Source of the DNA: Candidatus Bruticola sp.
Lineage (GTDB): Bacteria; Vulcanimicrobiota; Xenobia; Xenobiales; Xenobiaceae
DNA: 64,000 nucleotides
Assembly: GCA_051874695.1 (NCBI GenBank)
Contig: JBJEGC010000022.1
Coordinates: 5,895-69,894, forward strand
Direction: 5' to 3'
Shown here: in pieces, positions 25,193 to 48,471 of the stretch
How the letters are laid out: each line of letters opens with the position of its first letter
How positions within the stretch are numbered: the stretch's first letter is position 1
Notes under the pieces: generated by a model
Told to the model about the DNA's origin: nothing
The model's database searches: none
The model's input: the letters and a program-made list of their open reading frames with translations, nothing else
Position numbers and translations under genes: made by a program

Positions 25193-25864
25193 ATGACTAT
25201 AAATACACCTATTAAAATCGTCGTAGCCTTCGTAGTAATCGCACTCATTGTTGTTATGTTCTGGTTGTTTGACTGGAAAGATAAAACAGAGCAGATCGAA
25301 CAAAACAACAACAAAGTAGCAGAACTTGAAGTCAAATTAGAGGAACAGCGCAAGCTGGTTGCCGATTTGCCTGCTCTTACCAAAGAGAAGAATGAATTGG
25401 ACCAAGAGCTGGCTCGTGTCGTCCAGACCAATCTCGTTCCTGAAAAAGCCGAGCTCTTTGTTGCTAACTACATCAAAGAGATCGAAAAGCTGACCCAGGA
25501 AGAAGGGTACCGTACTGGTGATGATTCCTTTGAAATTATCTCCATTACCCCTGGTGCTCTGACTTCACAGGCTGCACAAGGTTCCGATGCCGGCAACACT
25601 GAAGCTGCTGAAGAAGACGAAGGCGTTGACGCTACTCCCGATGCTCTTAAGCAGTTCCCGACCCGTATGTTCCAGATGACTATGAAGGGCAGATACTCTA
25701 CCCTGATCGAGTTCCTCTATCAGTTGGGTGATCTCCGTTTAGAGCGTTTGGTTACAATCGACAAGATTGCGCTGCAGCCTGAAAATAAAAAAGAAGGCGA
25801 AGCTGGTAATCCCGTCTTGACGATCCAAATTCCCATCACAGCTTACATGAGACAGGGAGGTTAA
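25193..25864 (+). CDS. pilO: type IV pilus assembly protein PilO
   Basis: Single TM plus a coiled coil, positioned after pilN. AAGGAGG RBS. Confidence 0.65.
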   Translation: MTINTPIKIVVAFVVIALIVVMFWLFDWKDKTEQIEQNNNKVAELEVKLEEQRKLVADLPALTKEKNELDQELARVVQTNLVPEKAELFVANYIKEIEKLTQEEGYRTGDDSFEIISITPGALTSQAAQGSDAGNTEAAEEDEGVDATPDALKQFPTRMFQMTMKGRYSTLIEFLYQLGDLRLERLVTIDKIALQPENKKEGEAGNPVLTIQIPITAYMRQGG

Positions 25865-25873
25865 AGAAAAAAT

Positions 25874-26638: not shown

Positions 26639-26878
26639 CTCATCTTCTGGATAAAATGTCAGTCTCTTTTGAAAAATTGAAAATAATAAAAAGCACGGCC
26701 AGGCTTTCGAGGGTGTCTGTCCGTTTGCAGGAAGGTCTACCTAATTAAGAAAGGGGCGCACATATTGCTTTGCGCGTGCTTTCCAAATGGTGGATCGCAC
26801 CCTCGGAATGAAACTTATGGTTTCAAGTAATTAAGTTCTTAATTGAACGTGATGGCCAATAGGAGGTGGGTAAAACCA

Positions 26879-35300: not shown

Positions 35301-36065
35301 ATTCATGAAAACAAAGGCGAGTACAGAGATTCGGTTCGTTACTTGCGCCGCGCTATCGAGTTGGCGCCGGATCGTGCCGATCTGCACTGCCGTCTGGCTA
35401 AGCTTTATGATGAGCAGTTGCAAAGCATCAGTGGAGCTATGCAGGAATACAGAAAAGTATTCGAGCTCAATCCAGGTGATGCGGAAGCTATGAGCCGCTA
35501 CGCTCAGCTTTTGGTATCCCAGCGCAAGCCCAAAGAAGCTGCAGCCGTCCTGCTTAAATTGCAATCAATTAATAAAGAAGTTGGTAAGCAGGCCATCAAC
35601 ACCATCTGCAAGTCCTTCTTGGACAAGATCGCTCAAGACGGTGCTGATTTAGCTACCAGATATAGCTATGGAGAGCTGTGTTACTACCTCAACCGCATTA
35701 GCGATGCTATCGAGCAGTTCCAGAAGACTCATGCCGACAGAGACTTAGAGCTGCGCTCCCGCAACATGTTAGGTTTGTCCTTTATAAAGATGCCTCGTAT
35801 GCGTGAAATGGCTATCCGTCAGTTCCGCTTAGGTCTTGATACTAAAGGACATGCGGAGCAAGATTACCTCGAGCTGCGCTATAACTTGGCTATGTTGTTC
35901 TACCAGACCGACCGCCTCCAAGAGGCTCTGACCGAATTCAAGAGCATTTTGGCCTTTGACATTACTTACCGCGATGTCGAAGCCAGAGTTAAAGATTTGC
36001 AGGCTAAGATCGCTGCCGGCGGAGGCGCTTCTAAAGGCAGAGGCGTTCCTCCCCGCCGCAAATAG
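29394..36065 (+). CDS. giant (2223 aa) TPR protein with repetitive disordered centre and five repeated hydrophobic segments
   Basis: Single uninterrupted ORF. TPR-like units occupy the N-terminal ~330 aa and the C-terminal ~600 aa. The centre is Gly/Lys-rich, then Gln-rich 14-aa repeats, then acidic EQLGGQYGAYPEA repeats. It holds five copies of GVGLAKVAVGAVAIGAVAAASSxVADNF. Confidence 0.7.
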   Translation: MTYVADTIEGLMQEARAFADSRSWDQAIESYSRVIDLDADNDEACRSLANIYALRGMFKSVISTYLRLMHIYVARSDMDNAMAVANYVLLLEPASIDVRSELINMYRYRGDTAEVVSRSLDLARLYTELDEGDRSIELLQAVLNDDPNNADICRELAEMYIQYGQVERGASQYHQVADLYQANGQLDKACDALERILVVNSGDSGAVFHLGELYSMMERWEDAERQFRSALKFDFENLDVMFALGNVCQRKGDLDQASLAYRKIVMIAPDYVLAQERLGEIYHMQNNIELAIKAYLTAGGLYVRSNDSEHAIALYQRVIFLDPNNPAATRELTNLGAPVVGNDGGIQPLVKNKAATKSSRSESRREKKDGERKTRSGLLPKGGGGVRSGLVAKGGGSKPGLGGKPVLGGDGEAEGAPRPGLMRAGLKASGGGKPSLGGKPMLGGKRVLGSRKKKAEEAKEEAPVEHTAISLAKEPENDQSAAVENVAANDGEVQAAEVVAVESGVDEVMPTPEHVESSESQPEVGTVAEAVPEVGAAIPESAGDIHSEMTPEHNPEAFSASEHQVPLEDNIYADGNQQYVGEDQQFGGDMQQYAGEAHQFGGDMQQYAGEAQQFGNDMQQYAGEVQQFGSDMQQYADDSQQFGGDMQQYVGAEQGQGHEYYQEPYAAQTGEFYGEHADGTGHFEQPTESHEAYYQQEGTAAEYGEQHQYEDAAYGGENYSDNGYGFDMHRPLIMVPEGELIVPAPILYLERTDLYEAICQAITEVPDPSVIPWEPLRVIDEAAIEEKLAQQSAEAARAAAEAEEAARAEAEKEQAASSSVEGFDFSGGVNLKGVSGTGLRRKYSKGESKGSSSSGRSRLSGNQSLSERVARMRAESAELEESASEHRAISGINRHHQDKSQKKEKGRSIVGGISRPINQVIEEANQANQANGTAPQTYADQAPEIPRPELTATRSRSSLSERIKRARQSKAAAKVQAEEVNAELSAQSVEQPVAEFDGNAYQAESQEAVNTSAASAEYGAPTAPDGQLSGEYEAYQAAEQAASDPSASELGLAQVAVGAVAIGAVAAASSAVADNLDDLTQGEYPIESGAEAEQLGGQYGAYPEAEQANEGEQLGGQYGAYPEAGQAAEGEQLGGQYGAYPEAEHAAEAEQLGGQYGAYPEAEHAAEADTSGVGLAKVAVGAVAIGAVAAASSTVADNFSGAELYADTAAEELLGEQYGGGENVEAEPAAVVEEEQLGAHYSAYPEAEPAAEADTSGVGLAKVAVGAVAIGAVAAASSTVADNFSDAELYTEAVSEEQFSGQYEAEPVEAEPAAAEAEQLDGDYGNYADAVEQAVNSGVGLAKVAVGAVAIGAVAAASSAVADNFGDLEQYASYPDADGAPVSEPVAQIEDRQLNKANANPSRDVAEEVQSVETPVAVADELDTSSNDDNAQVVELDEAGASMIEFVEVDDDRTDVPEIVLNEPDEVATPTKVKVPVRIKRRKRRSAPVIEQIEEVEEIEADLPQGDAGSDASSGVGLAKVAVGAVAIGAVAAASSMVADNFAANASELYQQDAQSEFIEAENIHEESAVAEAEPEEVQPEPEPEPVGDELCSLSVESELPPEYLKEAQRLRDKLVGADVTTAIGDYRRAIENSPENLVLRTDLADVHLRFSLMDDAINQYRQILRRKPDSVALRHRLACAHLWNEDFDEAIKVYLDLAELHTQNEQYADVIDVLQTVLSLDPQHFKARRLLIDRFIAQGKVDLATHHLRQFVDAALSLGSVDNAIFALKQLIELSDDPAFVERLAKVYEEHDNVSEAISYYQILSERYRKEEKWSEALAVCSKLVALEPDNFDERRLLISLYQNLGRYDKAMAEQFHLAGLYKEQNSMDEAAELYQSIVDKDPGHYAARRCLVDCYLSKGNLQAAMMQVAPLTERYRSERLFEQAIEMYRSLVEADPSSVDLREELLAFYTMGEQRENMLSELLTLNEIHENKGEYRDSVRYLRRAIELAPDRADLHCRLAKLYDEQLQSISGAMQEYRKVFELNPGDAEAMSRYAQLLVSQRKPKEAAAVLLKLQSINKEVGKQAINTICKSFLDKIAQDGADLATRYSYGELCYYLNRISDAIEQFQKTHADRDLELRSRNMLGLSFIKMPRMREMAIRQFRLGLDTKGHAEQDYLELRYNLAMLFYQTDRLQEALTEFKSILAFDITYRDVEARVKDLQAKIAAGGGASKGRGVPPRRK
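31130..31350 (+). repeat. in-frame tandem repeat, ~7 x 42 bp (DMQQYAGEAQQFGG)
   Basis: Near-identical 42-bp units are visible in the sequence. Confidence 0.8.
32541..34020 (+). repeat. five dispersed copies of an ~80-bp unit encoding the hydrophobic segment GVGLAKVAVGAVAIGAVAAASS(A/T/M)VADNF
   Basis: Copies start near 32541, 32907, 33163, 33406 and 33936. The peptide is conserved, while the DNA differs at many synonymous positions. Confidence 0.8.
32665..32885 (+). repeat. in-frame tandem repeat, 4 x 60 bp (EQLGGQYGAYPEAEQAxEG)
   Basis: Almost identical 60-bp DNA units. Confidence 0.8.
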
Positions 36066-36103
36066 TGGAACTCTTAAGCGCCTTTATTGGAATCGGAGAA
36101 AAA

Positions 36104-39100
36104 ATGACAGATCGTAGCAATATGGAGTCCCTTATTCAGCAAGCCGATGATTTAGTTGGCGCTGGTAATTGGGAAGAGGCCCGAGAAATATATAAGCAAG
36201 TGGTCAGTCAGGACCCTAATAACGTGGAAGTGCGCGAACACGTGCTTGCATCTGCAAAACGAGCATTGGCTTTCCAGGTTATTATCGGCCAGGATATGGC
36301 TCTGGCTGAGCTCTTTGCGGCTAACGGTGAAGCTGAGAAAGCTATCGATAGCTACAAAGATATCCTTAATTTAGAGAAGATGGCTCAAAGTCAGGGTATC
36401 AGTGGTGCCCAGCTGAGTGAAATTCAGAACTTAGTGGCTCAGGTTAAGCCGGAAATTTTCGCTAAAACCGGTACTATTTATCTGAATGAAGGCCGCTACA
36501 TGGAAGCCATTAAGTGGTTGCGGCCCAGTTTAGATTTGGATCCTAGCCGTTGGGATACGCATATGGCTATGGGACGCGCCCTGATGATGGACAACAAGAA
36601 CAAGGAAGCCATTTCCGAGTTCCAAGAAGTTGTTCGTTTGGCCAGTACTGAAGCTGCTAGTGCTTATGAACTGCTGGGTGAGGTCTTCCTGCGTATTGGG
36701 CGCTCTCCGCAGAACACGATCGTTTGGTTCCGTAATGCAGGTGAACTTTTTGTGCAGCGCAATGAGTTTACCGATGCCATTAGAGCTTATGAGCGTATTT
36801 TGCAATTTGAGCCTCGCAACAAAGATATTCTAGTTCGCTTAAGTGACATCTATACCGCCGAAGGCTATACCGAAAAAGCTTGTGCTGCTTACTTTACTCT
36901 GGCTCAAATTTTTGAGGAAGAAGGCTTCTCCGACAAAGTAATGAGTTACTTGGAGAAGACAATTGAGTTCAATCCTGCTGATGATGAAGCCAGAACGAAG
37001 CTGATCGCTATTTATGGCGAAGCCTTGGAAAACGATCCCTCCAATGTTAGTCTCAGAGTTCGCCTCATTGAGAATCTCCTTAAAAAAGGCATGTTTTCTG
37101 AAGCGGCGGAAAATCAGCTCGAACTGGCCAAGATCTATATCGACAAGGGCAGCATAGATGACGCCATCGCCACTTTGCGCAAACTTATCGATATTGAGCC
37201 GGATAATATTGAGGCCCGTCGTTTACTGGGCGATCAGTACCGGCGCAAAGATATGGGTACTGAGGCTTTGTCTGAGTATCAGGAAGTGGTACGCCTGTAT
37301 CAAGAGAACGGCTTTGCCGATGAGGCTATTGAGTTCCAACATCAGCTGGTCGAGATGTTCCCCGAAACTTCGGATTTGCGCTATCAAGTTGCTTTGTCTC
37401 TGCGCAGTCAAGGCAACCATGAGGGGGCTGTCAGAGAGTTGGACCGTCTGGTACGCAGCAATCCCGATGACATGATTGCCATGAACTATCTGGCTGAGGA
37501 GTATGCGGCTTTAGGCCATTGGGATAAGGCCATAGGGGCTTACCATGAGATACTTAATCATGATCCTGCCCGCTACGATGTGCGCAAGCGTTTAATTAAG
37601 TATTACGTTGAGCAGAGCTTTTATGAAGAGGCTATGGCGGAGATTCGTTTACTGCCTGATGACGACTTTGAAAAGAGAGCTTTTGCTTACAAGATCATTG
37701 AGCGCTGTTTGGAAGAAAACCGCACCGACGAAGCTGAAGCTTATATTCATGGTCTTGAGCCGGATGACGAACGTCTGGTTTCGTTCCACAAAGAGCTGCT
37801 TAAACGTTACCTCGATTTAGGAGAGCTTGTTCAGGCTGACAGGGTTGTAACTTTAATTCCTCGTTCTGATAAAGAACGTAATAAGTTGATTACTCGCCTG
37901 ATGGAGTTGTATCTTGGCGCCTCCAATATGGAAAGTGCAGTAGCGTTGATCGATCGTTTGCCTGACGACGATTCCCTGCGCCTTTCTTTTCAGCGTCGCC
38001 TGATTAATTCTTATCAAGAGATGGGACGCTTTGAAGATGCGGCTACTGAAATGGCGAAGCTTCCTCCCGGCGATGAGTCTTATCACGATTTCTCCATGCG
38101 TCAGATCTCCGGTCTTATGCAGTCTGGCAGACTCAACGATGCCATGAACTGCATCAAAGAGCTCAGTGAAGACGACCCTGCCCGCAACTCCTTTATGGGG
38201 CAGCTTATAGAAGCTTATTTGCAGGATGGCAATATCGATAAAGCTGCTCAGGAAGTGGCCGGTCTCCCTCCGAAGACTGAAGTTTGTTCCAGATATATGC
38301 GCCGCATTATTCAGGCCTATTTGAATAATAACCGTTTTGAAGAAGCTGAGCGCGATATTATGCTTCTCGATTCTAACGATCCTGAGAAGCTGTCGTTCTT
38401 GCGTATTTTGCTCCAAAAGTACGAAATTAACGGTTTAGTAGATAACCTTAGAGAGCTTGTGGTTAAGTTGCCTGACGGCATGCCTGAAAAGCAGCAGTAT
38501 CTGGACGGTATAGTGCATTCTTTCTTGACTGCCGGCAATATGGCGAAGGCGCGACAAGAAATTTACAGTTTAGCCGAGACTGTGTCGGAAAAAGGCAATC
38601 ACTTAGAAGCGGAGCGTCTCTATTCCGATCTTTTGGCTTACCATCCCGTCGATGTAGAAATCAGGATGCGGTTGTGCCAAGAAGTGGCTGCTCAAGGTAA
38701 GTTAGAGCGTGCTTCTGAAGGATTGTTGGTGTTGGCCGGACGTTTCCGTAAAGAGGGCAATGCTACATCGGCGGTAGACATTTATACTCGTCTTTTAGAA
38801 ATTGATCCGGGTAATCTCAATGCTCGCTACCGTTTGGGTGAAATTTGGGCTCAACATGGCCAGACTGCTCAGGCTTTAGAGCATTTCTCTTTCCTGGCTA
38901 GTGAGTATTTGCGGCAGAACTTGAATGAGGTCGCTCAAAAAGTTTTGCATCGCATTCTCGATTTGGACAGTAAGGACATTGTTCACCGCCGTCAGCTTAT
39001 CACTTTGTTGGCCAGAAACATGCGTCTGGAAGAAGCCATAGAAAATTATCGGGTTCTTTTGGGCATACATCTGGACAGGGGAGAGCTCGAAGAAGCTTTG

Positions 39101-40519
39101 ACTTGCGTGCGTGAAGTCAAGCTGCTGCAGCCTTTGAATTTGGAGCTCAGCCAGTGTTTGGGCGCTATGTTCCTGAAGGCCGGTTACTTAGAAGAAGGAC
39201 AGCAACTGCTGGAAGAGCTCATTCCTGCTTACAAAGGGCGCTCCGATCATGAAAACGTGGTTAAAGTGTTCCGAACCCTTTCTGAAGCCTTCGATGCTAA
39301 TCAGCAATGGGAAGCTGCTTTGGAGTATTTGGAGCGTGTTGGTGACGAACAGGTTGAGGCTGATGAGTGGAGGGAAGCTCAATCCAACTATTTGAAGGCC
39401 TTGGAAGAGTACTTGCGCCGTGGACGTCGAGAGTACACGGATACTCTCTTTGTTAAGTTGATTGACGGTTTCTTCCGTCATAAGAACGTCAATGAGGGTG
39501 TAGAGCTGCTGAAGGAAGTTGAGGAGCGTTTCGTTAGGGCGGGTCGAACCGATTTAGCTCTGATCGTAAAAGATCGCCTGGCTTCTATCATGGAGCGGCT
39601 TGAAGAATGGAGCGAAGCTCTCGATGTGGTCATTCTGATTGCTGATACCAACTTGGAGCTGGGGGATGTCGAGCAGGGTATTGCTTACTATCGTCGCGGC
39701 GTCGATTTGGCTGTCAATCATGATATGACCGAGCGCGGCGTTGAGCTGGCTTTCAAAATGGCCGACTTACTCATTAACTATCGGGGCATTGAGGCAGCTC
39801 GTCCGATTTTCGATGAGGTCAGGGTTTACGATAACCAGTCTCCGGAAACCATTGAGCGCATTGCCGATATTATGTTTGAGCGTGGTTACCGCGGTGAAGC
39901 TTGCCCTATCTACAAGGAAGTTTTGGAGTTAGAACCTGGACGCGCTCAGTCTCTTTCCCGCGTGTCTATTATTTACGCCTTAGAAGGTAAACTGGAAGAA
40001 GCGGCCGGCTTGGCTCGTCAGATATTCGCGAAGGGACTCGTTGGCAAAATCACTGAGGAATACGGCAAAGCTCTTTGCTGCAAGCCAAACGATGCCGTTT
40101 ACCACATTAAAATGGGCGAATTCTTTAGGCAGCTTGGTTTCTTGGAAGAAGCTATCGATGAGTTCCATAAAGCTATTACCGATCCGGCTAAGGTTTTGGT
40201 CGCAGTTAATGGTTTAGCTATGGCCTTCCAAGAAAAGGGCTACCGTGACTTAGCTATTAAACAGCTGCAGAAAACCATGGAACAGCCTGGTTTCAGCGAT
40301 GAAGAACTCCTCGATCTGCGCTATAATTTAGCTATTATTCTCCAGGCTGAAGGCCGCTACGATGACGCCATTCAGGCTTTCCAAGAGTGCTACGCCGTAG
40401 ATATTAAGTACCGTGATGTATCTGAGCGCTTGAGTGAACTCTTTGAAAAGGTTGGAGACGGAGTGCCAGGTGAGGGCAGTGGTTACGATGATTACTACTA
40501 TTTCGAAGGAGAGGAGTAG
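36104..40519 (+). CDS. giant all-TPR protein (ORF-track length 1484 aa; ~1471 aa from ATG 36104)
   Basis: TPR-like 34-aa units run throughout, with no TM segment. The ATG at 36104 has GGAG 5 nt upstream. The ORF-track start (GTG 36065) overlaps the upstream stop, so the two genes are translationally coupled or co-transcribed. Confidence 0.7.
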   Translation: MTDRSNMESLIQQADDLVGAGNWEEAREIYKQVVSQDPNNVEVREHVLASAKRALAFQVIIGQDMALAELFAANGEAEKAIDSYKDILNLEKMAQSQGISGAQLSEIQNLVAQVKPEIFAKTGTIYLNEGRYMEAIKWLRPSLDLDPSRWDTHMAMGRALMMDNKNKEAISEFQEVVRLASTEAASAYELLGEVFLRIGRSPQNTIVWFRNAGELFVQRNEFTDAIRAYERILQFEPRNKDILVRLSDIYTAEGYTEKACAAYFTLAQIFEEEGFSDKVMSYLEKTIEFNPADDEARTKLIAIYGEALENDPSNVSLRVRLIENLLKKGMFSEAAENQLELAKIYIDKGSIDDAIATLRKLIDIEPDNIEARRLLGDQYRRKDMGTEALSEYQEVVRLYQENGFADEAIEFQHQLVEMFPETSDLRYQVALSLRSQGNHEGAVRELDRLVRSNPDDMIAMNYLAEEYAALGHWDKAIGAYHEILNHDPARYDVRKRLIKYYVEQSFYEEAMAEIRLLPDDDFEKRAFAYKIIERCLEENRTDEAEAYIHGLEPDDERLVSFHKELLKRYLDLGELVQADRVVTLIPRSDKERNKLITRLMELYLGASNMESAVALIDRLPDDDSLRLSFQRRLINSYQEMGRFEDAATEMAKLPPGDESYHDFSMRQISGLMQSGRLNDAMNCIKELSEDDPARNSFMGQLIEAYLQDGNIDKAAQEVAGLPPKTEVCSRYMRRIIQAYLNNNRFEEAERDIMLLDSNDPEKLSFLRILLQKYEINGLVDNLRELVVKLPDGMPEKQQYLDGIVHSFLTAGNMAKARQEIYSLAETVSEKGNHLEAERLYSDLLAYHPVDVEIRMRLCQEVAAQGKLERASEGLLVLAGRFRKEGNATSAVDIYTRLLEIDPGNLNARYRLGEIWAQHGQTAQALEHFSFLASEYLRQNLNEVAQKVLHRILDLDSKDIVHRRQLITLLARNMRLEEAIENYRVLLGIHLDRGELEEALTCVREVKLLQPLNLELSQCLGAMFLKAGYLEEGQQLLEELIPAYKGRSDHENVVKVFRTLSEAFDANQQWEAALEYLERVGDEQVEADEWREAQSNYLKALEEYLRRGRREYTDTLFVKLIDGFFRHKNVNEGVELLKEVEERFVRAGRTDLALIVKDRLASIMERLEEWSEALDVVILIADTNLELGDVEQGIAYYRRGVDLAVNHDMTERGVELAFKMADLLINYRGIEAARPIFDEVRVYDNQSPETIERIADIMFERGYRGEACPIYKEVLELEPGRAQSLSRVSIIYALEGKLEEAAGLARQIFAKGLVGKITEEYGKALCCKPNDAVYHIKMGEFFRQLGFLEEAIDEFHKAITDPAKVLVAVNGLAMAFQEKGYRDLAIKQLQKTMEQPGFSDEELLDLRYNLAIILQAEGRYDDAIQAFQECYAVDIKYRDVSERLSELFEKVGDGVPGEGSGYDDYYYFEGEE

Positions 40520-40532
40520 GGCTGAGTTTTAC

Positions 40533-41984
40533 ATGAATTGCTCTGTTACTCCATATCGGAAGGTTTTGCGCAGAAGCGTAATTGCTGCCGGTGCAGCGAT
40601 GGCTCTCTTCTGCCTTTCCTGCAGAGCATGGGCCCAGGAAGTCGGCGGCGAAGCTGCTGCTGGTGAGGGCGGGCTCGTGCAAACTTTAGCTTCTCATATG
40701 CAGGTGCTACAGATAGTCTGCGGAGTGTCTGCAGCCATTTTTGTAGTCTGTCTGTGCTGGGAAGTTTGGGTCTCCATTCAGCTGCATCAGAATGGAGGTG
40801 TGCTTCCTGAACCTGAGCCGCAGGAAGAAGAGCCTGAACCTGAAAAGCCTTCCCGCTTTGAGGCTCCTGTGCTGGACGAAACAGAAGATCCGTTTAAGGC
40901 GCTGTTAAATAAGGCCAGCTCGTCTGAGGATGCTAATAAAAATGAGGGAGGAAGTAAGAAGAGTTCTGGGTCTTCCTCTGCTTCTGCACCTTCGTCTTCC
41001 GATTCTGCTGAATCGGGGAGCGGTTTCTCCGGCAGTAAGAAATTTGAACCTTACAAAAATGTCGAACCTATTAAGAGTGGCGATCGTATAACTCGCCGTG
41101 AGCAGGATAATCCGTCTTTTGATGGCGATGCGACTATCGCTGTTGGAGCGGGGTTAGTTCCTCCTAAGGTCGGTGGTTTTGGCGTAGGTACTGGCGGAGC
41201 TGTTGGATTTGGCACTCCTCCTAAACCACCCGCACAGCCTGCTGCTGTCGGATTTGGAGCTCCTTCCAAGCAACATAGTATAGGTTTTGCTCCGCCGAAG
41301 TCTCCCGCCTCCGGTTCGACTGGCTTTGCTCCGCCGAAGCCTCCCGTTTCTGGTCAGGCCGGTTTTGCTCCGCCGAAGTCTCCCGTTTCTGGTCCGGTAG
41401 GCTTTGCTCCGCCGAAGTCTCCCGTTTCCGGTCCGGCCGGTTTTGCTCCGCCGAAGTCTCCCGTTTCTGGTCCGGTAGGTTTTGCTCCGCCGAAGTCTCC
41501 TGTTTCCGGCCCTGTAGGCTTTGCTCCGCCGAAGCCTCCCGTTTCCGGCCCGGCCGGTTTTGCTCCGCCGAAGCCTCCCGTTTCCGGCCCGGCCGGTTTT
41601 GCTCCGCCGAAGTCTCCTGTTTCCGGCCCAGCCGGTTTTGCTCCGCCGAAGTCTCCTGTTTCTGGCCCAGCCGGTTTTGCTCCGCCGAAGTCTCCTGTTT
41701 CTGGCCCAGCCGGTTTTGCTCCGCCTAAACACGGAGGTTTAGGCGTTGGTCCGGGAGCATCCTCAAGTCGTTCTGCTGCGGTTCCTACCAATGTGGGAGC
41801 GGCTCGTCCGACAGTTCCTTTGGGGGCAGCCAGGAGCGCTGCCGGTTCTGCTGACGCCGCTAAAACAGGAGATTCTTGGAAAGCTTTAGCCAGCGGTATG
41901 GAGAATAAAGGTATGGCTCACGGAGCGCCCCGAAGCCAATCTTTAGATATTAAGCGCAGTGGTTTCCCCCCTGCTAACCCTTAA
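40533..41984 (+). CDS. signal-peptide/TM protein with 12 tandem 13-aa proline-rich repeats (GFAPPKSPVSGPA)
   Basis: The ATG at 40533 gives MNCSVTPYRKVLRRSVIAAGAAMALFCLSCRAWA/QE (signal peptide). A second hydrophobic helix follows (VLQIVCGVSAAIFVVCLCWEVWV). Then come an acidic/Ser-rich region, the repeat array, and a Gly/Ala-rich C-terminus. Confidence 0.6.
   Translation: MNCSVTPYRKVLRRSVIAAGAAMALFCLSCRAWAQEVGGEAAAGEGGLVQTLASHMQVLQIVCGVSAAIFVVCLCWEVWVSIQLHQNGGVLPEPEPQEEEPEPEKPSRFEAPVLDETEDPFKALLNKASSSEDANKNEGGSKKSSGSSSASAPSSSDSAESGSGFSGSKKFEPYKNVEPIKSGDRITRREQDNPSFDGDATIAVGAGLVPPKVGGFGVGTGGAVGFGTPPKPPAQPAAVGFGAPSKQHSIGFAPPKSPASGSTGFAPPKPPVSGQAGFAPPKSPVSGPVGFAPPKSPVSGPAGFAPPKSPVSGPVGFAPPKSPVSGPVGFAPPKPPVSGPAGFAPPKPPVSGPAGFAPPKSPVSGPAGFAPPKSPVSGPAGFAPPKSPVSGPAGFAPPKHGGLGVGPGASSSRSAAVPTNVGAARPTVPLGAARSAAGSADAAKTGDSWKALASGMENKGMAHGAPRSQSLDIKRSGFPPANP
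41283..41735 (+). repeat. tandem 39-bp repeat x12 encoding GFAPPK(S/P)PVSGP(A/V)
   Basis: Directly visible in the sequence. Units differ at a few synonymous and A/V sites. Confidence 0.85.
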
Positions 41985-42013: not shown

Positions 42014-42907
42014 TTGTATATCCCTAAAGGCAACATATTAATCGAAGACGTAGAGTTGTCGTATGACAATATGCGCGAAATGCAGGCTAACTTATCCAAT
42101 GACGGCTTCACCGGCTATGTCAAGTTAGACTTAGAAAATTCTTCTGCTTATGTTTTTTATGATAATGGCACTGTGGTCCAGGTTTTAGAGGTTGATAACG
42201 CAACTAGTCTGGTTAGTTTGCAATTGGAACAGCGCCTTCTTAATCGTATTAAGCTCGACAACATAAAATGCTCTAGCTACGTGACTTCTAAGCGTATTGT
42301 CAACGTACTGACAGGTATTTTTGCCTTCCAACCTCTTTATCTTGATTATGAAGCCAAAAAGCGTGATATGCCTCGCATTTTGGAAAAACTCCAAGATGGA
42401 GGTTACAGTGGTCTAATGAAGCTGTCTACTCGTGAGGGTACCTATTATTTGGCAATCGATAATGGCGATATTGTGCGCGATCGTTTTTGCTACAACTATG
42501 GGGAAGTTCTCAGTGGTACCGAGGCTATCGATCGCATACTCAATTTTGAGTTCGATAGCGAAGGAGCCACTATGAGCATCTTTGCTGAGCGCGTTGAAGA
42601 GATCGACATTAAGCGCAGTGCTAAAGAAGAGGAACTTGAGAAGATCAAGACTCTGATTGTCAAATCTGATGGCGGTTTCCTGCGGGCTAACGATGTTGTC
42701 AAAGTTGATAACTATATTGTGCGCGAGTGGAATATCGCCGATATTAAGTCTACTTTCTCTGTCGAGATTGAAACTCCGGACGGCTCTCTCTATGAATACA
42801 GATGTCAGGCCGGTTCTAAGTTCGGCGATCGTGCCGGTTTAACGCCTGCCATGATGAAGAAGATGGGATTAGCTGAAGGAGATAATATCTCTATTCGTCC
42901 TCTGTAA
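42014..42907 (+). CDS. protein with two DUF4388-like domains
   Basis: Two segments fit the DUF4388 pattern G.L....L..L......G.L.L......YF.DG.IV. They are GNILIEDVEL...DGFTGYVKLDLENSSAYVFYDNGTVV and ILEKLQDGGYSGLMKLSTREGTYYLAIDNGDIV. The TTG start has GGAGG 8 nt upstream. The domain call relies on recalled family patterns. Confidence 0.45.
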   Translation: MYIPKGNILIEDVELSYDNMREMQANLSNDGFTGYVKLDLENSSAYVFYDNGTVVQVLEVDNATSLVSLQLEQRLLNRIKLDNIKCSSYVTSKRIVNVLTGIFAFQPLYLDYEAKKRDMPRILEKLQDGGYSGLMKLSTREGTYYLAIDNGDIVRDRFCYNYGEVLSGTEAIDRILNFEFDSEGATMSIFAERVEEIDIKRSAKEEELEKIKTLIVKSDGGFLRANDVVKVDNYIVREWNIADIKSTFSVEIETPDGSLYEYRCQAGSKFGDRAGLTPAMMKKMGLAEGDNISIRPL

Positions 42908-43009
42908 ACTTAATGATGCCGGTGCCTCTCTCTATGAAATTTTTTCTGATTAGGGAGGCCCCCGGCTTCTGGCTCCATGAAATAATAGGTGTTTGGAAGG
43001 AGAGAGAGC

Positions 43010-43369
43010 ATGTCTCAACTGACATCTCTGCTGCAAAGTTTTCAGCGTTTAGATGGGGTTCTGGGCGCTTGTATTCTGAGCAAAGATTGTGAAATATTGG
43101 CGGAAAATTTAAACGATTCGGTCAAAAATGATGTCGCAGCCGTTTCTTTTAAGGAGTTCTTGCCTAAAGTAGAAGCTCTCGTGTCCGGATTGGGCGTTGC
43201 CGGGGTTGACAGGCATCATCTGATTCTCGATGATAAACAGCTTATGATAGAAGTTTTAGTCGGCGGGGCTATGCTGGTTGTTTTTACCAGCAGCGACAAC
43301 AGCAATCAAGGGCGCGTGCGCTTAGAGATTCGCAAGAGCAAAAAGAATATAGAAGCAGCTTTGGCTTAG
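43010..43369 (+). CDS. Roadblock/LC7 (MglB-like) domain protein
   Basis: About 119 aa with the roadblock pattern LDGVLGACILSKDCEILAENL...AAVSF...LGVAGVDRHHLILDDKQLMIEVLVGGAMLVVFTSSDNSNQGRVRLEIRK. AGGAG lies 7 nt upstream. Confidence 0.6.
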   Translation: MSQLTSLLQSFQRLDGVLGACILSKDCEILAENLNDSVKNDVAAVSFKEFLPKVEALVSGLGVAGVDRHHLILDDKQLMIEVLVGGAMLVVFTSSDNSNQGRVRLEIRKSKKNIEAALA

Positions 43370-43460
43370 CTGGTTTTTGGGGTCGAAATTCGGTTTATAA
43401 GCTGCAGATTGAATTTTGTCTGTGATAATTAAATGAGGAATAGTGAGGCCGGATACTAAA

Positions 43461-45101
43461 ATGGAAGTAATGACTACTCTGGAAAGGCAAATTCAGAGAA
43501 ATCGCCGTTTACTGGAAAGTGATCCTAATAATGTCGATTTGATGCTTACTTACGCGCTGGATTGCCTGCGTCGCGATTTGCGTTTTGAGGCTTTAGTTAC
43601 TTTCCAGAAGGCAATTCAACTGAAAGATACGGCTGATGCTCATCTGGCTTTGGCGCAAATTTTCTATTTGCAGTCTCTTTATCGCGAATCTTATGAAGAG
43701 CTGCGCCGTGTTTTTAAACTCGATTCCATAAATATAGGCGCTCATGTTTTACTCCATCTGTTGAAGGATAAAGAGAGCATTCCCGACGACTTAGTGCCTC
43801 GTTTAGCTTTTGTGCCATCCCGTTCTGCTTTGGGAGATGAAATGATCAACGCGAGCAATGAGCGCGATCTATATCGTCGTGAAGTTCAGGAATATGAGGC
43901 TATTGCGGCTAGCGGTGTCAACGATCCCGAGCCTATTGTTCTTTATTGTTTGGGGGAAGCTAAAAAGCGCGTTGAGCGCATAAATGTCAACTTGAAAATA
44001 ATGAGCCGCTGGGAGCTTTTGGCTATTGATATGCCAGGCTTCCTGCCTGAAGAGAAGAGCGACTTAGTTGATAAATCTGAGGCTGCTTCCTCTGCTGAGT
44101 CTGAGGAGGTGGAGTCCGTCCAACCTCAAGAATCCTCTGTTGAAATAGAGGCTGTTGCGGCTGTGGAAACTGAGGCTGAAATTGATGCTGAAGCTGAAGA
44201 AAGCCACACTAAGAAAACTAAGAAGTCTAAGCGCCGTCGCGCCAAGGAACGCCATACTTCAGCCGTTGCTGAGACTGAGCAAGTTGCTGCTGTGGAAACC
44301 ACAGAGCCTGCGGCTGAGGTGGAAACTGAGGCTGCTGTAGCTGAGGAGACAACTGAAGCGGAAATTTCTAAAACTGCAGAAACTCTTGATACCACTAGTA
44401 TTGAAGCAGAGCAGCCTGTTGCAGTCAAGATTGAACAACCTGTTGCTGAAGATGAGAGCACCGTTTCCGAAGTTGCCGATATTGTCGAGGAGGTTCCTGC
44501 TGTTGCAGTTACTCTCGATAGTGAGTCTCCCAAGAATGAAGTGGCAGAAGTTGTTTCATCCGAGATTGAGGTGCCCGCTGCTGATCTGTCCGTTGTAAAA
44601 GACGAACAAACTGAGGATAAGGCGACTGCAACTGAGCCTGAGTCTGTATCCGATGATAGTACAACAGAGGTAATAGAAGTTTCTGAATCTGAAGTCGCTG
44701 TCGCCGAAGAGCCTGCAGCGGTGGAGGAAGTTCCTGAACTGCCTTCTGAAGAGGAGTTGGCCAAAGAGGCGTCCTTTAATGAATTTTTGGCTTCCATGTG
44801 CAAAATTAAAGGCAGTGTGAGAGCTATGGTTTTGACCGCTCGCGGACGTTTGGCTGCTATAGAGGGAGAGTTTGAACAGCCTGAAGAGACTGCTGCCAGA
44901 GTCGCTGGTTTCCTGAAAGGTGTCTGCAGTGACGGCAAGATGCGTCTAATTACTTTTGTCAGTGAGAGCAAGAACAGTTCAGTCATTCTGCAGCAGATTA
45001 ATGACACTTATTATATGTTGGTAGACGGACGGTCAGTCACCTTGGGCGTTTTGCGCCAACGTGCTGAGCGATGCAAAACTGAATTGGCTGGTTTGTGTTG
45101 A
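43461..45101 (+). CDS. TPR - acidic low-complexity linker - Roadblock/LC7 domain fusion protein
   Basis: N-terminal TPR-like repeats and a ~230-aa Glu/Ala/Val/Thr-rich linker. The C-terminal ~110 aa fit the roadblock pattern (GSVRAMVLTARGRLAAIEGEFEQPEETAARVAGFLKG...SSVILQQINDTYYMLV). Confidence 0.55.
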   Translation: MEVMTTLERQIQRNRRLLESDPNNVDLMLTYALDCLRRDLRFEALVTFQKAIQLKDTADAHLALAQIFYLQSLYRESYEELRRVFKLDSINIGAHVLLHLLKDKESIPDDLVPRLAFVPSRSALGDEMINASNERDLYRREVQEYEAIAASGVNDPEPIVLYCLGEAKKRVERINVNLKIMSRWELLAIDMPGFLPEEKSDLVDKSEAASSAESEEVESVQPQESSVEIEAVAAVETEAEIDAEAEESHTKKTKKSKRRRAKERHTSAVAETEQVAAVETTEPAAEVETEAAVAEETTEAEISKTAETLDTTSIEAEQPVAVKIEQPVAEDESTVSEVADIVEEVPAVAVTLDSESPKNEVAEVVSSEIEVPAADLSVVKDEQTEDKATATEPESVSDDSTTEVIEVSESEVAVAEEPAAVEEVPELPSEEELAKEASFNEFLASMCKIKGSVRAMVLTARGRLAAIEGEFEQPEETAARVAGFLKGVCSDGKMRLITFVSESKNSSVILQQINDTYYMLVDGRSVTLGVLRQRAERCKTELAGLC

Positions 45102-47577
45102 TTTGAAAGCAGAGCGCGTTATTTTTAACATAAGCACTTACGGTGCTTTGGCTGTTGTTGGTGGTATTTTGGCCTTTCCTGCCGTTACAGCGGTGTCACA
45201 GGCCTACAGTAACGGCGCGCTCAGCTCTGCCCCCGTTTCTTCTCTCAGTCTGTTCGACTTTTTGAGACATGTTGTCCTAGATTCCGATTCAGGGGCCATG
45301 ATGGGAATGGGCAGAGGGGCTCTGGTTATGCTCATTGGAGTGGCCTCTCTGCTTTGGTTGTCTGTACCTCGCCTGCGCACTGAAAAGGGTGTTTTTGTTG
45401 GCATTGGTTTAAGTCTACTGCTTTTGTGGGGGGCCCTTTCTGCTTACTTCAGCGTCTGCGCTTATGAGAGCATGCTCGATTTATGTTCCTACGCTTCTTC
45501 CGTCAGTTTCTTTTTGTTGATAGCTGCCCTTAGCAGAGAGTTCTCTCTAAGGAGATGCCTTGGGGGAAAAAGTGGCGGTGAGGTTCAGCAGTCTGCAGAG
45601 CGCACTGCCAAAGCGGCTGTTTCGTATTTGCAGCTGATGACTTTTGCTGCAATAGCAGGGGCATGGCTGCTTTTTTTATGCAATCCTGTGGGCGATGGCT
45701 TGTCCGGCAGCTTTTACAATAAGAATTTACTCGCCGTATTTCTGCTTTTAACTCTTCCTGTAGGAATAGTTCGTCTATTTGAGCACTGCCGGGAGGCAGA
45801 AATCCATTATATAAGTGGTCTTAGTGCCTCTTTAGTTGCGTCAATTTTTTGTCAGATTTCTTTTATCACTGCAAATATAAGTAGTCTGTTTTTAACTTAC
45901 AGCCGTTCTTGCTTAATATTAGCTTGTTTTGCTCTGTCTGCTTCTTTTTGGCTAATTGTTTATCTTTCTAAAAATAGTCGTGAAGCTTGGCGTGGGGCAG
46001 CTTGGGCCGCCTTAAGTTGTCTGCTGTTGATCTTTTCAGTTTTTCTCTTTTCACGCTCGTTTTATGTCGCTTTAGTTTGCCTGGCCGCATCAGCAGTGGT
46101 TGTTTACAGGTTTTTCTTGAGTGGTGTCAAGGGCGGTAAGTTGATGGCGGCTCTTTTATGTGCTTCGGCTGTTTTATTTTCGTTGGTTGTCCTTTTTGTG
46201 CAGAGCGATTCGATGGCCGCTAAAGGAAGTCGCCATTTACAAGATTTGGGGGCCAAAGGCGATACCTCTTTAACATCCAGATGTCAATTCTATGAAGCTT
46301 CTCTAAAAATTACTGGGGAACATCCTCTGCTGGGAGTAGGGGCCGGTAATTTTGAGCGCTATTATCCTCTGTTTCAAACTGATTTTCGCTGGTTTTCTAA
46401 GCGTTCTCATTCTTTGAGCTGCGATTTGTTGGCTGAAGGAGGGGTGCTCTCGTTTGTACTTTTTTATGGACTGCTTGCTTTTGTTTATGTGCAGACCGTC
46501 AAAAAGGTCAGATCTGATGCGCCGCTTGTGGCTCAGCTTCGTTTGGCCTGTGCTTTAGGAGCTGCCCTTCTACTTATTCATGCCCAGTTAGATATAGACA
46601 GCCATGTTATGGTACTGCCTCTTTGGGGAGCTGCTTTGCTTGGTTTGGCTTGGGGAATTCCCAGCCGGGATGAGTGTTTATCTAATACTCTGGATGAGTG
46701 TGGTTTGTGGAGCAGTGGCAAACGTTACTTTATTAGTTATAACTGCATTCCCGCCGCGGCAGTTATCTTGGTTTTTTGCTTTTCAGGACAGGCCTGGGGA
46801 GGGCAATATTACAGTACTATAGGTAAAATTTATCTTGATATGGATGAACCGGAGAAGGCCAGGCAGTGTTATAACTGGGCTTCTGAATACGATCCCAATA
46901 TCGGTGAGTACTGGCGTCAAATGGCCGCTCTGGCCTTAAACCAGTGTAAGAGCGAAGATAAAGCTAAGTCGGTAGCCGTTAGCATACGTTTTTGTGCTAT
47001 GCAGGCTGCGCGTCTCGATCCCCATAGAGCTTCTGTACAGAGTATACTGGGACAGGGATTGGAGCTGTCTGACGATTTGCAGGGAGCCGAACAATGTTAT
47101 AAGCGCGCTTTAGAATTGGATAGTAAAAATTCTCCTGATATTTATAGCAATTTGGCTAGAGTATATTCGAAGCAAGGACGCCTTAAAGAGGCTAAGTCTG
47201 TACTCGATCGGGCTTGGTCGGCTTTTCCGGAAGAGTTGCTGCATCAGAATTATTTCTTTGACTTTCGTTACAAGCTGATAAATAATGAAATGGCTTCTTG
47301 TTGTTTAATGCGTTTTGAAATTGCTGCAACTGAAGGCAACATGGCAGAAGCAGAACTCAGCTTGTCCAGGGCGTGCAGGTTTGATAGCTCTCTTAAGAAT
47401 AGTTTGAAAGATGCAGCTGTCTATTTTCTAGAGCAGAGCAAGATTTCTGCTGCAGCGGGACAAATTAGCAAGGCAGAAAAGGAGAAAGCCAAAGCTGTAT
47501 GCTTCCTAAAGGTGGCTGCTTCTGCTATGCCGCAGGACGACAATATAAAAGGTTTGCTCCGGCTAACGGAAAGGTAA
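45061..47577 (+). CDS. O-antigen ligase-like (Wzy_C) polytopic membrane protein with C-terminal TPR domain
   Basis: More than 10 TM helices. The Wzy_C signature is present (EHPLLGVGAGNFERYY...RSHSLSCDLLAEGGVLS). The C-terminal ~280 aa are TPR-like. The start is uncertain because it overlaps the upstream gene. Confidence 0.65.
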   Translation: MLSDAKLNWLVCVDLKAERVIFNISTYGALAVVGGILAFPAVTAVSQAYSNGALSSAPVSSLSLFDFLRHVVLDSDSGAMMGMGRGALVMLIGVASLLWLSVPRLRTEKGVFVGIGLSLLLLWGALSAYFSVCAYESMLDLCSYASSVSFFLLIAALSREFSLRRCLGGKSGGEVQQSAERTAKAAVSYLQLMTFAAIAGAWLLFLCNPVGDGLSGSFYNKNLLAVFLLLTLPVGIVRLFEHCREAEIHYISGLSASLVASIFCQISFITANISSLFLTYSRSCLILACFALSASFWLIVYLSKNSREAWRGAAWAALSCLLLIFSVFLFSRSFYVALVCLAASAVVVYRFFLSGVKGGKLMAALLCASAVLFSLVVLFVQSDSMAAKGSRHLQDLGAKGDTSLTSRCQFYEASLKITGEHPLLGVGAGNFERYYPLFQTDFRWFSKRSHSLSCDLLAEGGVLSFVLFYGLLAFVYVQTVKKVRSDAPLVAQLRLACALGAALLLIHAQLDIDSHVMVLPLWGAALLGLAWGIPSRDECLSNTLDECGLWSSGKRYFISYNCIPAAAVILVFCFSGQAWGGQYYSTIGKIYLDMDEPEKARQCYNWASEYDPNIGEYWRQMAALALNQCKSEDKAKSVAVSIRFCAMQAARLDPHRASVQSILGQGLELSDDLQGAEQCYKRALELDSKNSPDIYSNLARVYSKQGRLKEAKSVLDRAWSAFPEELLHQNYFFDFRYKLINNEMASCCLMRFEIAATEGNMAEAELSLSRACRFDSSLKNSLKDAAVYFLEQSKISAAAGQISKAEKEKAKAVCFLKVAASAMPQDDNIKGLLRLTER

Positions 47578-47712: not shown

Positions 47713-48471
47713 CTATTGGGCAGATGCCATATATATATCGCTTTGAGGAGCCTCAACCCTATTGGCATAAAATACGAAGTTGCCGTCAGGGTGCTGAGGA
47801 GCAGTATTCATAGCTTGCTTGGTGGTTGTGCGCAACTCTCCGGTAGCAGGATCGGCGATGGTGACGGTATCACCCTCTGTTTTGACGATGGTTACGATGT
47901 GACCGCGTCCTGAAGGGGAGAACTCAGGGCCGTTCAAAGCTACAATAACAGGAGTTTTTTCGTTGTTAACCTTGTGATCGATCAGTTCCCAAGAACCGGC
48001 GTTGAGATCGCCGCCGTCTTTCCAGTTATAACCTGCCTTACCGCATTCTGCATTGAGAGCGTTGAGCAGTTCAAAACCGTACTTGTCGTTAATATCGTAA
48101 TCGGTTAAGTTCTGTCCAGTTAAAGCGTTGACAGCCATGGCTACGCTAGTTTGACCGCAGGAAACTGGGGTATTCTGAGCCAACGGTTTTACTCCCATTT
48201 CGCCTAATCTGGCACTGCCGAAGTTAGAAGGATCGACTACGCCAACATTCTGGCTATTCATTAGGCTCCACAATTGGGGATTTACACCTTGAATATCATT
48301 CAAATTGATGGGAGCTTGAGGCTGAGCAAGGGCTTGAGGCACAGGAGCCTTATTCACCTTTTCAAACATCTGGGAGAAAGCGAGTGAATTCACTTCAGGT
48401 TCTTTGTTCAGACGCTTTTCGATTTGCTCTATACGATTCATCGCTTGCTGGATGTTATTGAGCATAAACAA
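47713..48471 (-). CDS. papain-fold C39-like cysteine peptidase domain protein
   Basis: The C-terminal domain has a Cys in QNTPVSCGQTSVAMAV and a His in GRGHIVTIV, followed by Asp, resembling the Peptidase_C39_2 arrangement. No signal peptide. GGAGGG RBS. The peptidase assignment is tentative. Confidence 0.45.
   Translation of the reverse strand: MFMLNNIQQAMNRIEQIEKRLNKEPEVNSLAFSQMFEKVNKAPVPQALAQPQAPINLNDIQGVNPQLWSLMNSQNVGVVDPSNFGSARLGEMGVKPLAQNTPVSCGQTSVAMAVNALTGQNLTDYDINDKYGFELLNALNAECGKAGYNWKDGGDLNAGSWELIDHKVNNEKTPVIVALNGPEFSPSGRGHIVTIVKTEGDTVTIADPATGELRTTTKQAMNTAPQHPDGNFVFYANRVEAPQSDIYMASAQ

Follow-up and report, generated by a model that had tools for sequence, protein, structure and literature searches.

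In WaaL, the ligase that joins O-antigen to lipid A-core, and in the protein O-oligosaccharyltransferase (O-OTase) PglL, two arginines and one histidine are essential (R215, R288 and H338 in E. coli WaaL; R224, R298 and H349 in PglL) (PMC3643930). According to proposals for these enzymes, the arginines grip the lipid-linked glycan donor by its undecaprenyl-pyrophosphate, and the histidine acts as catalytic base. WaaL belongs to the Wzy_C family, has 12 transmembrane (TM) helices and is about 400–420 aa long (419 in E. coli, 403 in PDB 7TPJ from Cupriavidus metallidurans); its structure stops at this 12-TM core, and its gene is found in an LPS-core cluster. In the protein O-OTases PglL, PglS and TfpO, a C-terminal periplasmic domain follows the TM core (bioRxiv 10.1101/2020.04.19.049825; PMC12800693). 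PglL and PglS of Neisseria and Acinetobacter have a Wzy_C core with the conserved histidine and arginines, measure 520–600 aa and are often encoded by pilin-linked genes (PMC3643930). TfpO (PilO) and TfpM, Wzy_C family members of 420–470 aa, glycosylate type IV pilins; they act on a C-terminal Ser/Thr and their genes lie immediately downstream of that of the pilin (PMC9829042). Adjacency to the pilin gene extends to TfpW and most PglL homologs (PMC3643930, PMC9829042).

Two described transferases also carry tetratricopeptide repeats (TPRs). In Paenibacillus alvei, the S-layer O-OTase WsfB combines Wzy_C with a C-terminal TPR motif (PMC2943079), and its gene shares an S-layer glycan (slg) locus with sugar-synthesis genes; the Geobacillus counterpart is WsaB plus the TPR protein WsaA. 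The acceptor of WsfB is a protein (PMC2943079), and bioRxiv 10.1101/2020.05.20.105809 cites it as an O-OTase. TfpW, the pilin arabinosyl-/oligosaccharyltransferase of Pseudomonas aeruginosa Pa5196, is polytopic with a large C-terminal TPR domain, the periplasmic location of which was shown experimentally (bioRxiv 10.1101/2020.04.19.049825). The TfpW core is an ArnT/Emb-like GT-C fold with a DDX motif, and its gene directly follows pilA.

Here we describe a Wzy_C protein with C-terminal TPRs (Wzy_C-TPR) encoded in a 64-kb stretch of DNA (the window) from a Candidatus Bruticola metagenome-assembled genome (Vulcanimicrobiota/Eremiobacterota, class Xenobia). The initial annotation had recognised both domains, and its ORF boundaries were exact; Pfam Wzy_C (PF04932) and several TPR families all match above their cut-offs. 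In public annotation the protein is called an 'O-antigen ligase family protein'. The translated product probably begins downstream of the ORF start, at TTG 45103, which shortens it to 824 aa, as the N-terminus of 10 of 12 orthologs reads MK[AELT]ER, corresponding to this codon (ortholog N-termini begin at MKAERIVFN), and as the codon lies two bases past the stop of the upstream gene (45099–45101). Since the two ORFs overlap or abut, the arrangement is consistent with translational coupling. Coordinates of all features are given in Table 1.

Table 1. Features of the pilus-linked locus, in window coordinates (aa numbering from the 838-aa ORF).
Feature	Coordinates	Strand	Basis or remark
Type IV pilus cluster: pilB, pilT, pilC, pilA, pilD, pilM, pilN, pilO, lipoprotein-like gene, pilQ secretin	16701..28867	+	Pfam matches; pilin leader and mature sequence
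pilA	21659-22120	same as Wzy_C-TPR	
Two giant TPR proteins (2223 and 1484 aa), no signal peptides	29394..40519	+	directly after pilQ
Protein with two TM-like segments and a proline-rich 13-aa repeat	40434..41984	+	repeat encoded by a 39-bp tandem array, 41283-41725
DUF4388/PatA_N protein of conserved module	42014..42907	+	55-96% identical across loci
Roadblock/LC7 protein of conserved module	42989..43369	+	syntenic
TPR-acidic-Roadblock gene directly upstream of Wzy_C-TPR	43443..45101	+	syntenic in 13/13 loci
Wzy_C-TPR, ORF as reported	45061..47577	+	838 aa; probable start TTG 45103 (824 aa)
Membrane domain	45103..46806	+	about 15 TM helices, WaaL (GT-C_B) fold
Pfam Wzy_C (PF04932) match, aa 320-469	46018..46467	+	E 9.9e-18, 64.8 bits (cut-off 31.7)
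Large periplasmic catalytic loop (predicted), aa ~385-461	46213..46443	+	invariant columns of alignments A1, A4, A5
Extra last TM helix TM15, aa ~557-577	46729..46791	+	hydropathy, AF2 secondary structure, positive-inside statistics
C-terminal TPR domain, aa ~581-838	46801..47574	+	Pfam TPR, AF2, topology inference
Peptidase_C39_2-like gene, convergent, just downstream	47713..48471	-	69-99% identical across loci

The membrane domain has a WaaL-like three-dimensional fold, and when the family profile was compared with PDB sequences, the WaaL entries 7TPG and 7TPJ were the only matches. A search with only the membrane domain gave 65 nearest relatives, all of which contain Wzy_C. In the alignment with E. 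coli WaaL, R282, located before the catalytic loop (at about 45904–45906), falls on R215 and R407 on R288. The histidine match rests on C. metallidurans WaaL, where H450 aligns to the His in the motif HAHND, the H338 column of E. coli WaaL being misaligned in MAFFT. Each residue of this Arg/Arg/His set is either invariant or conserved to 90% or more across the family (15–65 diverse relatives), and S403, R407, G425, G427, F431, H450, E459 and G461 of the catalytic loop are family-invariant. The comparison of periplasmic loops that the initial annotation had called for thus found the residues of WaaL and PglL retained, and its placement of the protein in their superfamily is supported by sequence, fold and catalytic residues alike. 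Judged on these, Wzy_C-TPR is in all probability a glycan transferase of the WaaL/PglL class (Wzy_C, GT-C_B), polytopic in the inner membrane, with an undecaprenyl-pyrophosphate-linked donor presumed as in WaaL.

The positive-inside rule gave 15 TM helices with the N-terminus inside. In 15 diverse sequences, the density of lysine and arginine was 0.159 in loops predicted to be cytoplasmic, compared with 0.046 in those predicted to be periplasmic, and every family-invariant polar residue falls on a predicted periplasmic loop. The catalytic loop is accordingly predicted to face the periplasm. TM15, one additional helix beyond the WaaL core, would place the C-terminus there as well, so that with 15 helices and an inside N-terminus the TPR domain of ~260 aa appears to be periplasmic. 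Pfam TPR_1, TPR_2, TPR_8 and TPR_19 match aa ~584–725 of this domain, which consists entirely of helical hairpins in the AF2 model. As 59 of the 65 nearest relatives carry TPRs although they were searched for by the membrane domain alone, the fusion is old and widespread and forms a stable subfamily. PglL and PglS likewise extend past the TM core into a C-terminal periplasmic domain (PMC12800693), but that of Wzy_C-TPR is a multi-repeat TPR and not Wzy_C_2. Neither PglL_A (PF15864) nor Wzy_C_2 (PF11846) was among the 25 best of its 26 Pfam matches at E <= 1 (weakest 0.26); in the relatives, Wzy_C_2 occurred in 1 of 65 and PglL_A was not among the 25 families listed.

Wzy_C-TPR is the main polytopic membrane protein of its gene module, and this, together with the apparent coupling to a cytoplasmic TPR-Roadblock protein, could mean that it is a non-catalytic anchor or scaffold that holds the pilus machinery, or a complex of cytoplasmic TPR/Roadblock proteins, at the inner membrane. 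Such a role is very improbable. Even relatives of only 20% identity retain the Arg/Arg/His set and further residues of the periplasmic loops without change, and the TPR domain is predicted to lie across the membrane from the cytoplasmic partners.

Next, we consider the setting of the gene. All 13 related loci, with identities as low as 29%, have one and the same array, which Wzy_C-TPR ends; its order is two giant TPR proteins, DUF4388, Roadblock, TPR-acidic-Roadblock, Wzy_C-TPR. In four lineages (the window, L024/L025, L026 and L027) pilMNOQ precedes the array or its giant TPR genes, which follow pilQ in the same order in L024–L027; L024 and L019 overlap at 99.3% identity, forming one continuous locus from pilT to Wzy_C-TPR. 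The position at the end of a pilus-linked module, as first described, is therefore deeply conserved and no accident of this genome. The immediate conserved partners are cytoplasmic, lacking signal peptides and TM segments, and look regulatory. The product of the gene directly upstream begins with a TPR-like region, continues as a long acidic linker and ends in a Roadblock/LC7-like domain (hhalign of the C-terminus against Roadblock: 94.5% probability, E 7e-8), again with neither signal peptide nor TM segment. The preceding protein matches Pfam Robl_LC7 weakly (E 0.006), its L017 ortholog clearly (E 6e-10). Module variants in some lineages add a response regulator and a histidine kinase, and the Peptidase_C39_2-like gene adjoins Wzy_C-TPR in every locus. 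Across loci Wzy_C-TPR is 29–70% identical, compared with 55–99% for its cytoplasmic neighbours, and so evolves much faster than they do. Envelope glycan enzymes usually diverge fast, and WaaL genes do so too.

This fast divergence is one point at which Wzy_C-TPR would suit a conventional WaaL that joins O-antigen to lipid A-core. WaaL is also the sole solved structure that it matches, with the catalytic residues in common; the phylum's one cultivated member is an LPS-bearing diderm (PMC9758169), and the secretin and SLH-domain protein encoded in the window fit an outer membrane. Nevertheless, this identity is unlikely. Wzy_C-TPR is twice the size of WaaL, with about three more TM helices and a periplasmic TPR domain that defines a stable subfamily. 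Unlike E. coli waaL, which lies within the waa core cluster, its gene belongs to a pilus cluster and regulatory array. The initial annotation had reasoned that a conserved place beside LPS-core genes in relatives would refute a pilin or S-layer O-glycosyltransferase; all 13 syntenic loci keep the pilus-linked module instead, and none has LPS-core or O-antigen genes beside Wzy_C-TPR. The window contains no LPS-core, LPS, glycan-synthesis, glycosyltransferase or flippase genes either.

Another role in glycan assembly is possible, if rather doubtful: Wzy_C-TPR may act alongside pilus-driven motility as the polymerase or ligase of a polysaccharide that is secreted or displayed on the surface. The Wzy_C core would polymerise or ligate lipid-linked repeat units, the periplasmic TPR domain would be a scaffold toward export, and the cytoplasmic TPR/Roadblock module (with the kinase where present) would control output. 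Myxococcus and cyanobacteria need a co-regulated polysaccharide for their type IV pilus motility, and here the conserved partners are regulatory, with a histidine kinase and receiver in some lineages. The superfamily includes Wzy-type polymerases as well as ligases, 7TPG itself being titled 'polysaccharide polymerase/ligase', and TPR domains are recognised scaffolds for polysaccharide export (ref. 99 of PMC2943079). In a TPR-fused relative from another phylum (L022), a tandem pair lies beside a Wzx-type flippase, methyltransferases and GT2/GT4 genes, a context that suits a protein O-glycosylation locus equally well. However, no initiating transferase, glycosyltransferase, flippase, co-polymerase or outer-membrane exporter is encoded in the window or the 13 syntenic loci, and an extra TM helix followed by a C-terminal periplasmic domain is the pattern of protein O-OTases (PMC12800693; bioRxiv 10.1101/2020.04.19.049825). 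The neighbours of a Wzy O-antigen/EPS polymerase (Wzx, co-polymerase and glycosyltransferases) were likewise seen only at the distant L022.

A protein acceptor fits the periplasmic TPR tail, by analogy with the precedents of WsfB (PMC2943079) and TfpW (bioRxiv 10.1101/2020.04.19.049825). WsfB, compared by description, resembles Wzy_C-TPR in its domain combination and its Terrabacteria origin; it differs in that the host of Wzy_C-TPR is a diderm and in that no slg-like locus is present in the 64-kb window. For the tail, TfpW is the best functional analogue, although Wzy_C-TPR has a WaaL-fold core and does not directly follow pilA. At 824 aa it is also longer than PglL and PglS, and about twice the length of TfpO and TfpM.

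Whether that protein is the pilin is a separate matter. The gene had been described as near the pilin gene: it does share a strand and one gene array with pilA, but lies ~23 kb and 14 genes downstream. The Ser/Thr-rich C-terminal half that had been noted in PilA proved mild, with 18.1% Ser plus Thr compared with 11.5% in the proteins of the window; at least 18.1% is reached in 10.5% of equal-length sequence windows, so that the enrichment is not significant and what stands is one local Ser/Thr-rich patch, PSTGTSDPYNSYTSS. The pilin ends in ...PDKNGG, with no C-terminal Ser/Thr of the kind used by TfpO and TfpM. Moreover, a sister lineage that has Wzy_C-TPR also has a TfpW-like membrane-TPR gene directly after pilA (L024 2708–4621), and in that lineage the latter is more likely to be the pilin glycosylase. 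Because of this gene, the distance to pilA and the composition and C-terminus of the pilin, the case for a pilin-specific role is weak. The proposal of a pilin O-glycosyltransferase thus holds for the pilus-linked array and a TPR domain that fits a protein acceptor, whereas nothing points to PilA specifically. The alternative of an S-layer O-glycosyltransferase was not upheld, the sole feature in its favour being the SLH protein, encoded 41 kb from Wzy_C-TPR.

We tentatively favour, with a probability of roughly 0.4, a pilus-linked enzyme that transfers O-glycans to protein under the guidance of its TPRs, rather than an LPS ligase. Counting against pilus glycosylation are the distance to pilA, the cytoplasmic regulatory partners and the TfpW-like gene of the sister lineage, as well as PglL_A and Wzy_C_2 not being among the Pfam matches listed, the TPR scaffolds of polysaccharide export and the L022 glycan cluster. 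In pilus-linked protein glycosylation by Wzy_C-TPR, a lipid-linked oligosaccharide would come from genes elsewhere in the genome and be flipped to the periplasmic side. There the TPR domain would dock a periplasm-exposed protein of the pilus system, either the pilin or another pilus-associated protein, and the Wzy_C core would move the glycan en bloc onto a hydroxyl side chain of the docked protein. In one group of gut bacteria, Wzy_C-TPR is always the last gene of a long type IV pilus operon, and given this conserved position, the glycosylation that it may carry out would be linked to the pilus.

The 838-aa ORF that the initial annotation had described as a Wzy_C membrane protein with a C-terminal TPR domain is present in the ORF list, and Pfam recovered both parts: Wzy_C at residues 320-469 (E 9.9e-18, 64.8 bits against a cut-off of 31.7) and several TPR families at residues ~584-725. 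NCBIfam gave weak, TPR-driven matches only, far below the cut-offs. In an ortholog alignment, 10 of 12 orthologs start at 'MK[AELT]ER', which corresponds to a TTG at 45103 in the target, two bases past the stop of the upstream gene. As the ortholog starts match this TTG and it adjoins the upstream stop, the product is probably 824 aa long; residue numbers here follow the 838-aa ORF. The database record of the identical protein reads 'O-antigen ligase family protein [Candidatus Bruticola sp.]'. Bruticola belongs to class Xenobia of the Vulcanimicrobiota (Eremiobacterota), whose sole cultivated member is a diderm that bears LPS and is motile by type IV pili (PMC9758169).

Searching 1.84 billion representatives with only the membrane domain yielded 3617 relatives at E <= 1e-3, of which 147 reached E <= 1e-10. 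In 128 of the 148 best relatives, the last TM helix is followed by 150 aa or more of soluble tail. Among the best 65, Pfam identified Wzy_C in all 65 and TPRs in 59, which marks the Wzy_C-TPR fusion as an old and widespread subfamily. A word-indexed search with the target returned 12 orthologs and, beyond these, unrelated proteins. The same type of search with a diverse membrane profile missed the intermediate relatives and returned mostly generic Wzy_C proteins of 430-470 aa labelled 'bicarbonate transporter' (IctB-like). We rejected this label for the target, as it is the annotation of distant IctB-like proteins only. The best match without TPRs (P0164) has a gene context of cyanobacterial type and is uninformative on a second ligase in Xenobia.

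A whole-protein search of PDB sequences matched TPR proteins only, and the family profile, searched against all PDB sequences, matched WaaL alone (E 5e-9). In the target, R282 and R407 align to R215 and R288 of Escherichia coli WaaL, while H450 falls on the His motif of the Cupriavidus enzyme. All three vary little or not at all in the family; the corresponding residues are reported to be needed by WaaL and to be conserved in PglL (PMC3643930). Aligned by hhalign to the single E. coli WaaL sequence, the family reached a probability of only 8.9%, with R288 nevertheless correctly placed, and in the MAFFT alignment the H338 region of E. coli WaaL was misaligned. The enzyme class and catalytic residues of the target are established, and it is very improbable that the protein is a non-catalytic scaffold.

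The fold is established as well. The AF2 model of the membrane domain, built from 15 diverse sequences, was confident (pLDDT 82.8, pTM 0.89) and was used in place of the full-length model (12 sequences), which had a pLDDT of only 65.8 and Foldseek matches that were all TPR proteins. Family-averaged hydropathy indicates ~15 TM helices, 11 ahead of the large loop and four behind it. With the N-terminus inside, the K+R density in 15 diverse members is 0.159 in cytoplasmic loops versus 0.046 in periplasmic loops, and all invariant polar residues of the family lie on predicted outside loops. Whereas WaaL terminates after the third helix past the loop, the prediction places a fourth helix there in the target, which would lead the TPR domain, residues 581-838, to the periplasm. 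A periplasmic TPR domain is thus a well-supported prediction.

This architecture has precedents. The four characterised O-OTase families comprise proteins of 420-600 aa (PMC9829042), and PglL, PglS and TfpO have a periplasmic C-terminal domain beyond the TM core (bioRxiv 10.1101/2020.04.19.049825; PMC12800693). In Paenibacillus alvei, the S-layer O-OTase WsfB has both Wzy_C and a C-terminal TPR motif, and a TPR protein gene lies just upstream of Geobacillus WsaB (PMC2943079). TfpW, which acts on pilins, has a periplasmic TPR tail on another GT-C core (bioRxiv 10.1101/2020.04.19.049825).

In the window, the target closes an array of genes on its own strand that runs from pilB, pilT, pilC, pilA, pilD, pilM, pilN and pilO through a PilP-like, lipoprotein-like gene at 25874-26638 and the pilQ secretin into a module (see table). 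In the module, genes for two giant TPR proteins precede those for a DUF4388/PatA_N protein, a Roadblock/LC7 protein and a 552-aa protein. The C-terminal ~110 residues of the 552-aa protein are homologous to the neighbouring Roadblock/LC7 protein (hhalign 94.5%, E 7e-8), so the module has two Roadblock-like domains; no small GTPase was seen with them. The giant TPR, DUF4388, Roadblock and 552-aa proteins are taken to be cytoplasmic because they have neither a signal peptide nor a TM helix. A scan of 28800-48700 for promoters and terminators was uninformative on operon boundaries, as sites were no more numerous than in shuffled sequence.

Features of the window around the Wzy_C-TPR gene
Feature	Position	Strand	Remarks
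867-aa protein with N-terminal SLH domain	1347-3950	-	41 kb from target
Two giant TPR proteins (2223 and 1484 aa)	29394-40519	+	directly past pilQ; no signal peptide
Tandem array in first giant TPR gene, 42 bp x 5.3	31122-31345
Tandem array in first giant TPR gene, 57 bp x 4.2	32660-32899
ORF with two TM-like segments and proline-rich repeat	40434-41984	+	between giant TPRs and DUF4388 gene; fast-evolving (28-76% identity across loci)
39-bp tandem repeat, 11.4 copies, 90% matches	41283-41725		encodes proline-rich 13-aa repeat
552-aa protein, TPR-like N-terminus, ~300-aa acidic low-complexity middle	43443-45101	+	stop abuts target's probable start
Wzy_C-TPR protein (target)	45061-47577	+
Peptidase_C39_2-like protein, no signal peptide	47713-48471	-	beside target in every locus

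The pilus-linked position of the target is conserved. Orthologs at about 55% identity, from human-gut metagenomes, have the same gene order. A scan of one genome per species, with a four-sequence alignment as query, returned 14 loci. When the window proteins were compared with the ORFs of these loci, 13 retained giant TPR 2, DUF4388, Roadblock, the TPR-acidic-Roadblock protein, Wzy_C-TPR and the opposite-strand C39-like peptidase, including five in which the Wzy_C domain is only 29-40% identical. The remaining one (L020), an alphaproteobacterial match of 72 residues without any module gene, was set aside. Directly behind each of the PilQ homologs (55, 50 and 42% identity) lie two giant TPR genes; the pair is found at 29394-40519 in the window, at L024 12469-22036 and at L027 12382-22067, the first protein being about 1700-2200 aa and the second about 1470 aa long. 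In several MAGs the contig breaks off within the first giant TPR gene, so that these assemblies conceal its connection with the pilus genes. L024 and L019 share a 1204-nt overlap at 99.3% identity, which allowed the stretch from pilT through Wzy_C-TPR to be rebuilt as a single continuous locus in a distant lineage. Contigs with the Xenobia/UBP9-type module and pilQ (L015, L016 and that of protein P0250) come from MAGs named 'Burkholderiales bacterium', a label that is probably wrong. In the contig of one ortholog (L002), an IS605 OrfB/TnpB-type gene (16128-17378) that is absent from the window lies between an unknown 484-aa gene and lon.

No other gene of the set evolves as fast per residue as the target: across L007/L009/L014/L017, identities were 70/54/34/29% for its membrane domain, 96/91/73/64% for giant TPR 2, 96/92/74/55% for the DUF4388 protein and 99/94/79/about 70% for the C39-like peptidase, which is unusually conserved (99-69% where the target is 70-29%). 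In some, distant lineages the module also includes a response-regulator receiver and a GAF-PAS histidine kinase between the Roadblock and TPR-acidic-Roadblock genes (L017 6936-8920), indicative of a function in signalling. That pilus genes, giant TPRs, the Roadblock/DUF4388 module and Wzy_C-TPR follow one another in a conserved order suggests that a layer of regulation acts on type IV pili; we found no description of one of this TPR/Roadblock/DUF4388 type in the literature searched.

We favour the reading, at a probability of roughly 0.4, that the target is a pilus-linked protein O-glycan transferase, for which we infer the acceptor. The window pilin PilA, with a classic leader (MMHRVSSRKG|FTLIE), is 143 aa long when mature. 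The Ser/Thr-rich C-terminal half of PilA, which had been advanced in favour of pilin glycosylation, does not stand out: S+T is 18.1%, a share reached by 10.5% of windows of the same length, versus 11.5% in the window's proteins. The rule of a pilin C-terminal Ser/Thr for TfpO/TfpM (PMC9829042) fails here, as the pilin ends in ...KNGG, and PglL_A and Wzy_C_2 are absent among the Pfam matches listed for the target. In a UBP9/Xenobia relative, pilA is directly followed by a gene for a 637-aa polytopic protein with C-terminal TPRs (L024 2708-4621, also L025), which shares gene position and architecture with TfpW, a pilin glycosyltransferase. No Pfam family matches the membrane part of the 637-aa protein. 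That lineage has the Wzy_C-TPR gene alongside it, and the TfpW-like gene is absent from the window and L027. S-layer proteins had also been named as candidate acceptors, and the SLH protein of the window could be an S-layer protein or an outer-membrane tether, as in other diderm Terrabacteria.

The initial annotation's alternative, a conventional WaaL, is unlikely. Genes for LPS core, initiating transferases, flippases and glycosyltransferases are absent from the rest of the 64-kb window. Somewhat less likely than the pilus-linked transferase, but a real possibility, is a polysaccharide polymerase or ligase tied to motility. TPR-fused relatives in other phyla neighbour a Wzx/GT2/GT4 glycan cluster (L022) or an ECF sigma factor (L021, L023), with no pilus genes beside them at these three loci. 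At L022 5066-10337, two tandem Wzy_C-TPR genes precede those for a Wzx-type flippase, two methyltransferases and GT2/GT4 enzymes; in this genome the fusion acts within a glycan-assembly locus.

The Wzy_C-TPR protein belongs to a known kind of enzyme, and its conserved tie to the pilus-attached TPR/Roadblock module is the more unusual part. Tentatively, it may act in the periplasm as the output enzyme of a hitherto undescribed module that is associated with pili and deeply conserved in Xenobia/Eremiobacterota. In this module, cytoplasmic polarity/signalling proteins would control pilus-component glycosylation or motility-polysaccharide release at the pilus assembly site, and the target would be the first of a fifth class of pilus-linked O-oligosaccharyltransferases, one with TPRs, in diderm Terrabacteria. 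Should the target be no more than a polysaccharide polymerase or ligase, the result would be unremarkable. If it glycosylates pilus proteins, a TPR-guided class would join the four known O-linking oligosaccharyltransferase families (PglL, PglS, TfpO and TfpM), which are working tools for bioconjugate vaccines. As the acceptor would be picked by a separable TPR domain, the enzyme could be re-targeted. It would also provide the first functional handle on the surface structures of Xenobia, a gut-associated lineage without cultured members in a little-known phylum.
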